DNA of 64,000 bases from Anolis carolinensis. Taxonomy: Eukaryota. The stretch is taken from contig NC_085842.1 of the NCBI RefSeq assembly GCF_035594765.1, positions 221,537,747 through 221,601,746 on the forward strand, given 5' to 3'. Both the position numbers and the translations under genes were made by a program. Numbering within the stretch: position 1 is the stretch's first letter; every line of letters begins with the position of its first letter. The notes under the pieces were generated by a model. That model saw only the letters and a list, made by a program, of their open reading frames with translations. It had not been told where the DNA came from and did no database searches. This document shows positions 29,549 through 42,521 of this stretch, piece after piece.

Positions 29549-30308
29549 CTTTCTAGGTAAGGCCCATCAGTAATGACACCATTGAAACCTGGGTATTGTT
29601 GCATCAGTGATTGTGAGGTCATCACAGTCATCAGTTAGATTGTTGCACATCCTAAGCTTGTCATGAGACATGGATCCCTAAGGGAAAGGAGAGAGACATG
29701 AGGAGAAAAGGAGGCCAGAAACAACTTCAGAGTGGAGTTTTTAAAAGATACTAAACAAGAAGGAAGAAAGGATAAGCAAATGTCTGTATGTAACATTTTA
29801 GCTGAGTGTGATATTTTTACATGGGTTCCAAGACTCACTGTTGATCTCAAATCCTGTGTTTTAGCAAAATAAAAGATACTTCATTTGGGGAAAAGGCCCT
29901 TGTGCAAATCTTACCTCATTCTTGAATATTCAGGATGATCTTAAGTGCACTATTATCTTAGATCCAGATATATTCCAAATTCTCATTTGAATCAATTGGA
30001 AGTGATGTGTAAATCTAACTGTTCATCTCAGAGTAAATACAATGGGATTTAGAGGGGTTGAATTTTAAAGATCAGTTAATTGTAAATCATGATTTTATTG
30101 GATTTCTTTATTGGATGGTAAGTCTGAATTCTTACTAAGCATTCCTTCTATGTAAAATATTTTGAAATTAAGAAGGGGATATGTATCAGCTCATCGTTGT
30201 TGTAGTTCTGTAGACTGCATGTATGCCATGTAAGTGGATTTTTAAAGAAAATGAGCAGCCCTTTCTCATACTCTCTCTCTAGGGGCCACCTGTGATGTTG
30301 CGGTAATA

Positions 30309-30655
30309 AAGGTTGAGTATCGCTTATCTGTAATATCTACAACAAAAGTGGACATCAGTCTTTTGGGGTGGGGGTGTTGGAGAATTTGGGAATACCTGTA
30401 TGTGCAAATGGGGTATTTTGGAGATGGGGCCCAAGTTTAAACATGACATTCATTGGTGTTTCATATACATGATACACACAAAGCTTGAAAGCAAATTTAT
30501 ATGAAATATTTTAAATAGTATTTTGCATGGAACCAAGTTTGTGCACACTGAACCTTCAAAAAGCAAAGATGTCACTATCTCAGTCAACTGTATGGACAAT
30601 CATGACTTTTTAATATTTTGAATTTTGGAATTCTGGATAAGGGATACTCAGCCTA
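30309..30655. mobile_element. pogo/Tigger-like MITE (Tigger4/MER46-like TIR)
   Basis: aggttgagtatcgcttatc ... gataagggatactcagcct. Confidence 0.7.
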
Positions 30656-32479: not shown

Positions 32480-32514
32480 TTCTTCTGCTTATTTTTTTTT
32501 ATCTTATTCACTAG
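32480..32514 (+). promoter_or_regulatory. 3' splice acceptor of the TOPORS-like coding exon
   Basis: cttattttttttatcttattcactag|GTGATGGCATCA directly before the ORF. Confidence 0.75.
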
Positions 32515-34305
32515 GTGATGGCATCATCAAATGAAGAGGTCAATTCTTCTGGTAACAGCTTTTCATACCTTACGGGAACAGGAAATGAGAACATTGCCAT
32601 AGCATCTGATGGACCTTCAGACTCAAGATGTCCTATCTGCTTGGAAAAAATACAGAACGTGGCCTTCTTAAATCCATGCTTTCATCGATTCTGTTTTGCT
32701 TGTATCCTAGAGTGGTCAGACAGGAAAGCAGAATGCCCACTCTGTAAGCAGCATTTTAATTCCTTTTTTCACAATATCAAAACTGATACAGATTTTGAAG
32801 AATACATTGTTCCTTCTGAAAATGTATGCTATGGTAATTGTGAAGAGAGATCAAGAACTGCTGAAAGACATGAGTTCCCAGAAGATAACGGGATTTTGAA
32901 TGAAGTACATTCAGGTCATCACTCTCAAGGCTCAAGGCTGAGAACACTTGATGAGTTAATGGGACATCTTGGTATAAGGAGGACACCTTATGCAGGAGGA
33001 TTGTCTCTTGGACAAATTCAAGAGCATGTTACAATAAAATTCAGAAGGGCCCTCTATCAATCTGGAGTGCGTGTCAGAAATGTCCAAAGTAGAGGTTTTT
33101 ATAGGGATATATCAGCAGATTTTTTCCACAGAAATCCCGCCCACCTTAACAGATTAGTTCCCTGGTTGAAACGTGAACTACGAGTGCTGTGTGGAGCACA
33201 TCCATCTTTGATCAACAACATACAGCATATCATTTTGAATAATATAACAATTTATGATCTGGACAGCCAAGCATTTTCTGAAATTATTCAGCCTTATTTG
33301 CTCCACTTAACTAATCACTTCCTGCATGAATTCATCAATTTTGCCCGTTCCCCTTTCAACATTAGGGCCTATGACTGGCGAGCCAGTTATGACTTCCCTT
33401 TTCCTACAGATGATGATGAGTCCCAATCTTATTCATCATTTACAACATCATCTTCAGAAGAGGAGGAGGAGGAAGAGGGGGAGGAAGAGGAAGAAGAAGA
33501 ATGGGAAAGTGAAGACTCAGAAGAGAATGCAGAAGAATCAGTGTCAAGTAATGAAGAAGGGACATGGGATGATGAAATGCAGAGATCAGCCAGTTCTGAT
33601 TCAGATCATACTCTGGATGAGATTTTTCTTCCTTTTGGATCTTCAGATGGTGAACTATTAAGAAGTGATGACAACATCCATGCATTTTTTCAAGCTGAGG
33701 TACAGTTAGGCACAAACCACAGACACAGTACATTACATAAATGTGGTCTTGATGAGCCTGAAGAGAATACATCAACACCATGCAAGTCTATCCCCAAATG
33801 TTTCGAGGCTTCAAAACACATTTCAATACATTTCACTGATGATGAAGAAGAAGAAGGGCTGATGAATGAGCAAGAGGCCTTAAGAAGTCACTGTTTTGAC
33901 AACAGTACTCATAGTAGTACACATTCTACTACTACCTCTAATGTTGTCCACCGTTCTAACAGTAATCAAATGCTTAATAATCCACAGCTTCCATCTCATG
34001 AACAAGAAAACGATAGCATGGAGAAGACACTATTGCACAAACAAGAGGCAGTTAGCAGCAAACTGATCCGCCATGAAGGAAATGAGATATTTGTGGTTAA
34101 GATACTTCAACCACAGACAGAAGACATGTTGGTTATTGAGCATTTCGAATGGAAAACAAGTGACAGGGATGATTTTGCTCAACTTCAATGGCATGGTGAA
34201 GAAACGTCTAACTTTATGGGACCGAACTCTTCCACAGACATAATTCCAGGTGGTCCTGCTACCAAGTATGAAGGTGGATGTTTTTCACATATCAGAAGAC
34301 CATGA
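32515..34305 (+). CDS. TOPORS-like: E3 ubiquitin-protein ligase Topors-like (divergent TOPORS paralogue), single large coding exon; ATG at 32518
   Basis: 596-codon uninterrupted ORF. C3HC4 RING CPIC-x12-CFH-x2-CFAC-x10-CPLC at 32629-32745. TOPORS signature block FRRALY..RVRN..YRDISADFFHRNP..RLVPWLKREL..HFLHEFINFARSPFN, then WDDE and SSDGELL. Preceded by a polypyrimidine tract and tag acceptor; Kozak context gtgATGg. Confidence 0.93.
   Translation: MMASSNEEVNSSGNSFSYLTGTGNENIAIASDGPSDSRCPICLEKIQNVAFLNPCFHRFCFACILEWSDRKAECPLCKQHFNSFFHNIKTDTDFEEYIVPSENVCYGNCEERSRTAERHEFPEDNGILNEVHSGHHSQGSRLRTLDELMGHLGIRRTPYAGGLSLGQIQEHVTIKFRRALYQSGVRVRNVQSRGFYRDISADFFHRNPAHLNRLVPWLKRELRVLCGAHPSLINNIQHIILNNITIYDLDSQAFSEIIQPYLLHLTNHFLHEFINFARSPFNIRAYDWRASYDFPFPTDDDESQSYSSFTTSSSEEEEEEEGEEEEEEEWESEDSEENAEESVSSNEEGTWDDEMQRSASSDSDHTLDEIFLPFGSSDGELLRSDDNIHAFFQAEVQLGTNHRHSTLHKCGLDEPEENTSTPCKSIPKCFEASKHISIHFTDDEEEEGLMNEQEALRSHCFDNSTHSSTHSTTTSNVVHRSNSNQMLNNPQLPSHEQENDSMEKTLLHKQEAVSSKLIRHEGNEIFVVKILQPQTEDMLVIEHFEWKTSDRDDFAQLQWHGEETSNFMGPNSSTDIIPGGPATKYEGGCFSHIRRP
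33457..33501 (+). repeat. Coding (GAG/GAA)n tract encoding poly-Glu
   Basis: gaagaggaggaggaggaagagggggaggaagaggaagaagaagaa inside the ORF. Confidence 0.9.
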
Positions 34306-34383
34306 TTTGTATATCAGAAAATTCAGTCCACGGGGGAAGTATTAAGTGGCCCTCTTCTGGAGGTTAAACATTACCCTCAGTTC

Positions 34384-34389
34384 AATAAA
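34384..34389 (+). promoter_or_regulatory. Candidate polyadenylation signal of TOPORS-like gene
   Basis: AATAAA about 80 nt after the stop codon; an alternative ATTAAA lies near 34942. Confidence 0.45.
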
Positions 34390-34529
34390 TTCATATATAT
34401 ATGAAAAAAATGTTTAATCCATAATATGAGAAATCTGGTGTTAACTCAAAAAAGTGTTATCAAAACACCTTTACATAACTTATCTTAACTGCTACTATGA
34501 GTAGAGCTGCTATGTAGAAATTGGATATA

Positions 34530-34849
34530 CAATAGAGTCTCACTTATCCAAGCCTCGCTTATCCAAGCCTCTGGATTATCCAAGCCATTTTTGTAGTCAA
34601 TGTTTTCAATATATCGTGATATTTTGGTGCTAAATTAGTAAATACAGTAATTACAACATAACATTACTGTGTATTGAACTACTCTTTCTGTCAAATTTGT
34701 TGTATAACATGATGTTTTGGTGCTTAATTTGTGAAATCATAAGCTAATTTGATGTTTAATAGGCTTTTCCTTAATCCCTCATTATCCAAGATATTAGCTT
34801 ATCCAAGCTTCTGCCGGCCCATTTAACTTGGATAAGTGAGACTCTGCTG
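34530..34849. mobile_element. Tc1/mariner-type MITE
   Basis: TIR caatagagtctcacttatccaa/ttggataagtgagactctgctg flanked by TA. Confidence 0.88.
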
Positions 34850-35870
34850 TATTTTCAAAATCATACTTGCATGCTTTATTGTCTAATTTTGGAAAGTGTA
34901 CATTTGTACATTTTGAACACACATCAGATTTTTTAAAGTACATTAAAGAAAAACTCTTTAGAGATCATTTATGAACCCTATATAGATTTTGTGTGTTTCA
35001 AATCACTGTACAGGTATGTTCATTGAAACAAAACTTTTACTTTCCTTCTTGCTTTGTTTTGGTTGATCAAGTACCTAACTGAACAAGAAACAAGTAATAC
35101 ATTAATGGGGAAGGGAACATCTGACACTTGAGAAACTTTGGATCTCTCATTATCCCTAAATTCTGGCAATAATACGTGGCACAGATGAGTTATAAGCCAA
35201 AATATTTGAACAGCCACCTTACACCAAATGGGATGAACTACAGTTGCAGTCGTACTTACTGCTGGCTTTGCTTCCATTTTAGTTTGGAATCTTTTATCTG
35301 TCAAAATGCTTTATGCTGCCACAGGCATAATTATTCATTAGAATCAAGTTCCGTCACAGGATAAGTATATAAGTTTTAAAGCTTGGGCCTGCTTATAACA
35401 AGTGAAATCAGGTCAATCAGGAATATCCATCATCACATAGCAAAGTCAATTGAAAGTCAATTGGAAAAGGATTATCAGTATTCAAGGACTAGCAAGCAAA
35501 ATAGTTTTAAGTTCACCCAATACAAGCAGGGTGTTGCATTAAATTAAGACCAATGACAGGCTTTGCAATTTTGAGACCCAGCAGTAAAGAGTATAATCAT
35601 CATGTTAAGTGCAGGGTGCTTTAATGATAACTAACTGTTGAGTAACATGGGAGTGGCAGAGGTATGGAATTTTATATACAGTTTAATATGAGAGGTTCAT
35701 GGATTGATTTGTAAGAGATCTCAAGAGACATCCAGTCCAACACTATGCCATGCAGGAATACACAAAGCACTCCTAACAAATGGTCATTTAGCCTCTTTCT
35801 CAAACTGTCACAGAGGAAGTCTGAATTTAGATGGCTTCTCCCCATACCGGCATCACAGCTCCTGAGTACT

Positions 35871-41431: not shown

Positions 41432-41951
41432 ACAGTAGAGTCTCACTTATCCAACGTAAACAGGCCGGCAGGATAAGTGAATATGTTGGATAATAAGAAG
41501 GGATTCAGGAAAAGCCAATTAAACATCAAATTAGGTAATCGTTATACAAATTAAGTACCAAAACATCATATTATACAACAAATTTGACAGAAAAAGTAGT
41601 TCCTTGCGCAGTAATGCTATGTAGTATTTACAGTAGAGTCTCACTTATCCAACACTTGCTTATCCAATGTTCTGGATTATCCAACACATTTTTGTAGTCA
41701 ATGCTTTCAATATATCGTGATATTTTGGTGCTAAATTCATAAATACAGTAATTACTATATAGCATTACTGTGTACTGAACTACTTTTTCTGACAAATTTG
41801 TTGTCTAACATGATGTTTTGGTGCTTAATTTGTAAAATCATAACTTAATTTGATGTTTAATAGGGTTATCCTTAATTCCTCATTATCCAACATATTCGCT
41901 TATCCAACGTTCTGCTGGCCCGTTTATGTTGGATAAGTGAGACTCTACTGT
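41432..41951. mobile_element. Nested Tc1/mariner MITEs captured in Helitron B
   Basis: cagtagagtctcacttatccaa termini; same family as 34530-34849. Confidence 0.8.
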
Positions 41952-42521
41952 ACTGTATTTACAAATTTACCACTAAAATATCACAATGAATTTAAAACAC
42001 TAACTACAAAAACATTGATTATGAAAAGGCAGACTGCGTTGGATAATCCAGAACATTGTATAAGCGAATGTTGGATAAGTGAGATTCTTCTTTAATATGA
42101 AATAATTACTGGGATAGAATAATGCAGAACAATATAATCTCTAAAACCAGGACAGTAAATAAACAGGGGAATTCCACACAGGAAACAATCAGGGCCAGCT
42201 AACACCTCCCAACAAAGTATTCCCATCATCAAAGTCTGGCAAATCCTGTTTTCTCAGGGCCACAGACAGTAGAAGCACATAAAATATCGCAAACAACACC
42301 ACTCTGAAAACAAGGGAATTCCAAACAGGAAAGAATCAGGGCCAGCTAACACCTCCCAACAAAAAATTCACTCAGGGAGGAAACAGCCAGGCTTTAAAGC
42401 TGCAAGGCCATTACATCCTAATCATTTTTCCTAATTGCAGCATTCATACTTGCCTCCAACAAACAAACAAACAAAAAACCAAACAGAAATATTGTATATT
42501 CACAACCTTTAGGAAATAATA

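Follow-up and report, generated by a model that had tools for sequence, protein, structure and literature searches.

A RING-intact, SIM-less reptile gene grouped by sequence with mammalian TOPORSL

The 64,000-nucleotide stretch of Anolis carolinensis DNA analysed here (the window) carries a spliced gene, referred to as gene A, which sequence comparison identifies as an old and constrained reptile co-orthologue of mammalian TOPORSL that is RING-intact and lacks SUMO-interacting motifs (SIMs). We propose that it would encode a RING ubiquitin ligase of the TOPORSL lineage, freed from the SUMO-directed nuclear role of TOPORS and re-aimed by an acidic tail. TOPORSL is nearly unstudied, with only two passing mentions in the literature searched, and no functional RING remains in the mammalian protein; the ancestral duplicate, as the reptile gene shows, was RING-intact. 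Human TOPORS is tied to retinitis pigmentosa and to centrioles and cilia. As a natural version of TOPORS that has the RING and helical domain with neither SIM nor RS region, gene A makes two questions testable: which partners bind the TOPORS helical domain; and whether any TOPORS substrates are SUMO-independent, for example at centrioles and cilia. The surprise is moderate, as gene A is a paralogue of a known ligase, auto-annotated as "Topors-like" in many reptiles, and its protein is already on record in NCBI in 595- and 598-aa forms. We found no description of the reptile gene or of its duplication in the main texts of the literature searched; supplements could list it in transcriptome tables. 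Features of the gene are collected in Table 1.

Table 1. Features of gene A and its surroundings (window positions)
Feature	Position	Strand	Basis
Core of CREM/GCNF composite site, TGAGGTCA	29614..29621	+	Lies about 100 bases 5' of transcribed exon 1 sequence
Exon 1, 5' end not mapped, ends ATG TCT before GT donor at 29786	29721..29785	+	X4 loose end matches 29721-29750
Minor 5' form, alternative GT donor at 30118	29786..30117	+	X8 and X9 loose ends map to 30087-30116, one match, 0 expected
29-nt cassette exon	30283..30311	+	X4 and X9 loose ends map to 30284-30309; AG and GT boundaries
Pyrimidine tract and AG acceptor of last exon	32495..32514	+	Sequence; sharp rise of X4, X8 and X9 depth at 32515
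Coding sequence, 595 aa, TOPORSL-clade gene A	32518..34305	+	Frame, homologues, tree
C3HC4 RING, residues 38-77, with I40, W66, L75, K77	32629..32748	+	Pfam PF00097, E 5.5e-9; model; structure matches
TOPORS helical domain PF26084, PWI-like, residues 168-293	33019..33396	+	Precomputed PF26084; pLDDT 93-98
Ser/Glu-rich acidic stretch in place of first TOPORS SUMO-interacting motif	33412..33612	+	Alignment
Tandem hydrophobic-acidic motif of SIM-like type (residues 523-543), in squamates only	34084..34146	+	15/15 squamate sequences
C-terminal hydrophobic-basic motif; Cys-x-x-Cys in most reptiles, one Cys in A. carolinensis	34273..34302	+	26/28 A-type records
AATAAA polyadenylation signal	34384..34389	+	Sequence; X4, X8 and X9 contigs end at 34410, 34378 and 34374, X1 continues

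Relatives of gene A, 550-595 aa in length, were found in iguanians, a monitor, snakes, lacertids, an amphisbaenian, a cordylid, geckos, turtles and crocodilians, and share 67-82% identity over residues 30-300. They form a clade (100/100) that follows the species tree, with squamates split from turtles plus alligator. Gene A, a squamate paralogue (B) and the mammalian TOPORSL-type genes constitute one clade (100/99) in two trees (43 rows for the helical block; 28 rows for RING and helix together, with a bootstrap that had not fully settled), the rows being a subset of the matches picked to span taxa. An earlier reading, made from the sequence alone, had offered a relation to mouse Toporsl or a lizard-specific origin; the former stands, while the latter does not, as turtles and crocodilians carry the gene. 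The far longer bird branches stay outside this clade, which argues against long-branch attraction, and AU tests, which carry the model's long-branch bias, rejected both a separate mammalian duplication (p 7e-5) and a separate reptile duplication (p 2e-4). A shortened RING-to-helix linker is an independent character common to the TOPORSL clade: it measures 96-100 residues in A, B and marsupials versus 112-117 in tetrapod and coelacanth TOPORS, although linker length also varies by itself (sturgeon, 102; invertebrates, 74-92). The joint clade and the rejection of separate origins imply that the duplication came before mammals and reptiles parted, about 320 million years ago. For the order within the clade, AU p values of 0.18 and 0.37 leave mammalian TOPORSL compatible with orthology to A, to B or to the two together. 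The stem of gene A is about 0.9 changes per site long and its later branches are short, the pattern that would be expected after a change of function, as the sequence-only reading had supposed.

Gene A was not found in birds, mammals or tuatara among the matches listed by word-seeded searches (120 of 316, 10 of 10 and 120 of 359). It appears dispensable in some lineages, none having been found in birds among the matches listed. Birds own multi-copy TOPORS-like genes, including 13 rhea records in one cluster and a duck record with two RING units (P0180, P0387-P0398, P0209); these were rejected as descendants of gene A since they branch outside the TOPORSL clade.

Paralogue B (about 720 aa) belongs to the same clade as gene A and has an intact RING, but its tail is basic and it evolves faster (0.76 and 0.73 identity). 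In other squamates it lies directly downstream of A, as seen from adjacent locus tags and from A-B fused models in three species (B records P0137, P0191, P0270, P0277 and P0282-P0298), and it is present in Sceloporus and Phrynosoma. Neither one genome search nor a profile search of 264 kb found it in A. carolinensis, from which it has apparently been lost; a weak match 80 kb upstream of A was due to chance. The 120 of 359 matches listed contained no turtle or crocodilian B. A garter-snake model, P0301, fuses SPAG8/CFAP143, A, B and an SNF2 piece and is probably an assembly or annotation chimera; SPAG8/CFAP143, considered as a neighbour of gene A because of this model, is 103 Mb away in the present genome.

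Mammalian TOPORSL resembles gene A in its clade, its shortened linker and its want of canonical SIMs, and marsupials keep an LNP remnant of the RING loop. However, the RING pattern is missing in all 10 mammalian records tested and the tail is long and basic, whereas A keeps the RING and has an acidic tail; the close gene neighbours do not appear to be common to the two either. One mammalian PF26084 protein without a RING is named "arginine/serine-rich-like". Decay of the TOPORSL RING appears stepwise, with recognisable remnants in marsupials and almost none in placentals (P0198, P0271, P0272, P0273).

All eight zinc ligands of the gene A RING and its Trp are present, as is the RLVPWLKREL...HEFINFARSPFN block, just as first read from the letters, and the ligands are complete in 25 of 25 gene A records. 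Over nine squamates, the RING is more conserved in gene A than in TOPORS (identity 0.91 vs 0.84), and the helical domain less so (0.87 vs 0.93). Gene A is constrained as well as spliced, and the earlier claim of a retained duplicate is upheld. A model of residues 30-299 built from 113 sequences had a mean pLDDT of 87, with 92-97 in 10-residue blocks of the RING, and the RING model matched RING structures with Z up to 7.6. The modelled helical domain matched RBM25 (3v53) and a spliceosome chain (6ff4_Y), both of which we take to be PWI domains, at Z 6.0-6.2, which is too low alone to prove the fold but is in line with a PWI-like bundle. I40, L75 and K77 correspond to I105, L140 and K142 of human TOPORS, the joint mutation of which abolishes ligase activity (PMC11402782; numbering from PMC4752349). 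Judging by these conserved residues, the gene A RING very probably binds E2 and transfers ubiquitin.

TOPORS, described as a vertebrate RING ubiquitin ligase and a SUMO1-selective SUMO-targeted ubiquitin ligase (STUbL) (PMC11402782, PMC11183266), shares with gene A the RING plus PF26084 helical domain, a large last coding exon and the chromosome. It differs in being about 1000 aa long with an RS region, SIMs, a UBC9-binding C-terminus and a basic linker, whereas gene A has 595 aa without any of these; its pI is 9.1-9.4 versus about 4.8 in gene A of this species; and a new C-terminal motif belongs to gene A. Over the records compared, pI is 4.6-5.2 for gene A and 8.6-9.7 for TOPORS. Canonical SIM words occur in 0/25 gene A records versus 14/14 TOPORS records, when tested for the four human SIMs that the methods of PMC11402782 give as needed for poly-SUMO binding; PMC11183266 counts five SIMs plus one atypical. 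Likewise, the basic linker motif (FRYRTT-type) is present in 14/14 TOPORS and in none of the 25 A, 9 B and 10 mammalian TOPORSL-type sequences, and all strongly basic 6-mers are absent from gene A. Its tail has 4 RS/SR pairs versus 30 in TOPORS, the RS region being absent. The earlier claim that no canonical coding remnant follows the stop was borne out by tblastn of five canonical C-terminal halves against positions 34000-64000, which gave none at E<=0.1. Turtle gene A aligns with canonical TOPORS to its last residues, up to TOPORS residue 546 of 1024, and the 254 TOPORS residues beyond that point contain 36 RS/SR pairs; by this alignment, gene A is shown to be cut off near the start of the RS region. 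Past this cut lie the UBC9-binding region of human TOPORS (871-917) and a second SUMO1-binding region (PMC4752349).

The tail was rightly called acidic, but it is not merely low-complexity: over squamates it consists of blocks at 0.69-0.70 pairwise identity versus 0.47-0.49 in the stretches between, and the turtle tail aligns with TOPORS. Its conservation peak (0.83-0.90) is the tandem hydrophobic-acidic motif, which is missing at the same place in five turtle and crocodilian sequences and is partly eroded in A. carolinensis. The C-terminal motif has two Cys in 20 records, one in 4 (including A. carolinensis) and none in 2 (lacertids), and the motif is missing in the crocodile and one gecko record. 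In turtle, alligator and opossum TOPORS its homologue is a CxxC immediately ahead of the RS-rich part, the motif being derived, by this alignment, from that CxxC at the truncation point. The sequence-only reading had overlooked that the SIMs and basic linker are lost and that the tail has gained motifs; nor did it mention tandem paralogue B, or that the RING of mammalian TOPORSL is dead. Three strands suggested at residues 514-546 were discounted, as the full-length model had a mean pLDDT of only 33; a two-copy prediction of tail residues 498-560 scored 0.00, and the python tail had no usable match in the Atlas. The spacing rules for CaaX and Rab-type prenylation signals do not fit the C-terminal Cys, and such signals were therefore rejected.

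From these comparisons, gene A is probably a RING ligase uncoupled from the SUMO-directed role of TOPORS and retargeted by its new acidic tail. On balance, it seems no longer to be a TOPORS-type SUMO-targeted or SUMO ligase. It would have no coupling to SUMOylated chromatin or PML bodies, and substrate and place would be set by the helical domain and the new tail. It is quite conceivable, if less than probable, that the helical domain chooses substrates or the site of action, as A, B and mammalian TOPORSL have kept no other part in common, and a human N-terminal fragment reaches centrioles and nuclei. That fragment (1-380) is described in PMC4752349; by analogy, its centriolar position suggests a centriolar role for gene A, and since it is also nuclear, gene A may still reach the nucleus even without an RS region. 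More tentatively, the C-terminal motif might tether the protein to a membrane or a partner, by acylation where Cys is kept. The loss of one Cys in four records and of both in two lacertids weakens the acylation reading, and the lacertid loss indicates that the motif may work by hydrophobic contact rather than by acylation alone.

One alternative, which we regard as unlikely although it fares best among those considered, is that gene A is a rebuilt SUMO-targeted ligase acting in another compartment, with the scattered SIMs swapped in squamates for an RNF4-like tandem pair. Through this SIM-like pair, SUMO binding may have been regained. Two acid-flanked hydrophobic cores are found in 15/15 squamates, right at the conservation peak of the tail, and the tandem SIMs of RNF4 described in PMC11402782 provide the model. 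RNF4, a tandem-SIM STUbL, and squamate gene A are alike in having a RING plus a close pair of such motifs but are unrelated outside the RING. The domain order of RNF4 is opposite to that of gene A. Moreover, the pair is missing at that place in turtles and crocodilians and partly eroded in A. carolinensis itself, and short hydrophobic motifs have many other partners. A still broader scheme, to which we give little credence, holds that, once TOPORS had been duplicated, its two halves were distributed between lineages: mammals would have a RING-dead, basic TOPORSL; reptiles would have an active acidic ligase with a lipid- or membrane-tethering C-terminus, with RNF4-like tandem SIMs rebuilt in squamates; and gene A would be an extranuclear, tethered STUbL of spermatids at the centriole or flagellar base.

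Gene A might also compete with TOPORS in a dominant-negative manner, holding E2s or helical-domain partners off SUMOylated chromatin, as RING-dead mammalian TOPORSL might do. The helical domain is indeed the sole part kept in all TOPORSL-clade genes, and dominant-negative action has been proposed for human TOPORS truncations at 807-867 (PMC9123486). These truncations, however, retain the RS region that gene A lacks, and the gene A RING is more conserved than that of TOPORS itself, so that we consider competition improbable.

The frame at 32515-34305, 596 codons from stop to stop, was confirmed as open; the best of 100 shuffled windows reached 203 codons without a stop, and in a neutral decay simulation 0/1000 copies stayed open at 0.1 substitutions per site. 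That it is a paralogue rather than the orthologue, as first proposed, agrees with the finding of a full-length TOPORS elsewhere in this genome. This TOPORS is a 994-codon frame at C2:226.26 Mb, 4.7 Mb from gene A, identical to the record named A. carolinensis TOPORS, and an NDUFB6 exon lies 18 kb away; the sequence-only reading had allowed that the frame would be the orthologue if the genome held no other TOPORS and synteny here were orthologous. Between gene A and this TOPORS, identity is 54% for the RING and 64% for the helical domain. Their codon positions 1, 2 and 3 differ at about 0.28, 0.22 and 0.6, and 32/46 four-fold sites differ; this pattern with near-saturated four-fold sites indicates that gene A is old and that selection acts on its protein. 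Gene A lies on the same chromosome as, and between, SMC2 (5.7 Mb off), presumably a neighbour of mammalian TOPORSL, and a NIPSNAP-family gene (23 Mb off). Horse TOPORSL has OR13, NIPSNAP3 and ABCA1 as neighbours, according to PMC11350783. Among 50 candidate exons and frames beside gene A, from the window plus 100 kb on each side, no Pfam family was found. No intact single-exon SUMO frame was identified for predicting a complex.

The main ATG at 32518 stands just 3' of the AG ending at 32514, which makes this frame the last exon of the gene. Small assemblies, one from each of three studies (X4, X8 and X9), the RNA nature of which is the tool's guess, cover 32515 to 34374-34410 with almost nothing outside, at a contig depth of 600-1400 that does not rank expression; run X1 covers the whole stretch at a depth of about 30 and is DNA-like. 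Runs with next to none of gene A's words are no proof of silence. In the same three assemblies, GT-AG joins lead from the last exon to upstream exons, and their loose ends map uniquely. The donor at 29786 accounts for the bases that open the X9 loose end and for the N-terminus of record P0363; these joins and this donor mean that gene A is spliced. A direct join of exon 1 to the last exon, which we infer from the donor and the 598-aa record, adds three N-terminal residues to give the 598-aa form. The segment at 29786-30117 is likely an extension of exon 1. If the cassette exon is included, the exon 1 ATG, as read from the sequence, would open an upstream frame of 9 codons, closed ahead of the main ATG. 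Other squamate gene A records enter the last exon directly before Ile/Val-Met, and mammalian TOPORS records appear alike; an acceptor at the same position as in TOPORS points to a DNA-level duplication, not a retrocopy. We therefore dismiss, as refuted, the idea that gene A is a redundant or decaying copy (a young pseudogene or retrocopy) or the true TOPORS orthologue, despite its single coding exon and an A. carolinensis branch of 0.20 versus 0.03-0.05 in sister iguanians, given the full-length TOPORS beside NDUFB6, the nearly saturated four-fold sites, the shared acceptor, the spliced transcripts and the orthologues across reptiles.

Among possible sites for gene A, male germ cells would rank first, a suggestion on which our confidence is evenly balanced and for which the evidence is weak. 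Mouse Toporsl is testis-biased. Near exon 1 lies TGAGGTCA, which gives a weak hint of a spermatid promoter, although three copies occur in the window versus 2.7 expected, which is no enrichment, and the exon 1 copy was chosen after the fact; the function of the CREM/GCNF motif is taken from PMC2853129. No GC-rich CpG island was found near exon 1. Against a germ-cell site, mouse Toporsl is expressed in cochlear inner hair cells, as reported in PMC12528612.

Several minor observations concern these transcripts and the surrounding DNA. One high-depth contig, in X4 only, joins window position 32657 back to 29721 across a short shared word and is probably a library or assembly artefact. A 2494-base X9 contig (record 17) reaches the acceptor (window position 32513) with about 2460 bases upstream, as either a long 5' form or upstream read-through. 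An inverted-repeat element occupies 34525-34850, a short way beyond the polyadenylation signal; copies about 89% identical to it lie at 41626-41952 and in the flanks. Tandem, near-identical LTR retroelements, Gypsy-like as judged from their frames, lie 20-30 kb upstream of the window (L043-L044, G000:C2:221.506-221.518 Mb), and a CpG-island promoter with CCAAT and GC boxes is found about 31 kb downstream of gene A (L031:1000-1400, G000:C2:221.603 Mb). Two further TOPORS-like sequences were noted in this genome. At L020:4371-5390 (G000:C1:252.79 Mb) there is a decayed, frameshifted last exon of canonical TOPORS with 67% identity over 1095 bases. A third intact frame, at L018:5894-6889 (G000:C2:226.578 Mb), lies 320 kb from TOPORS toward SMC2; it has a TOPORS-like RING (68% DNA identity to TOPORS over 98 bases) with one E2-contact position changed, Cys for the last Leu, a Ser/Lys/Pro-rich middle and a C-terminal hydrophobic helix with a 19-residue hydropathy of 2.36, and is thus a candidate tail-anchored RING protein.
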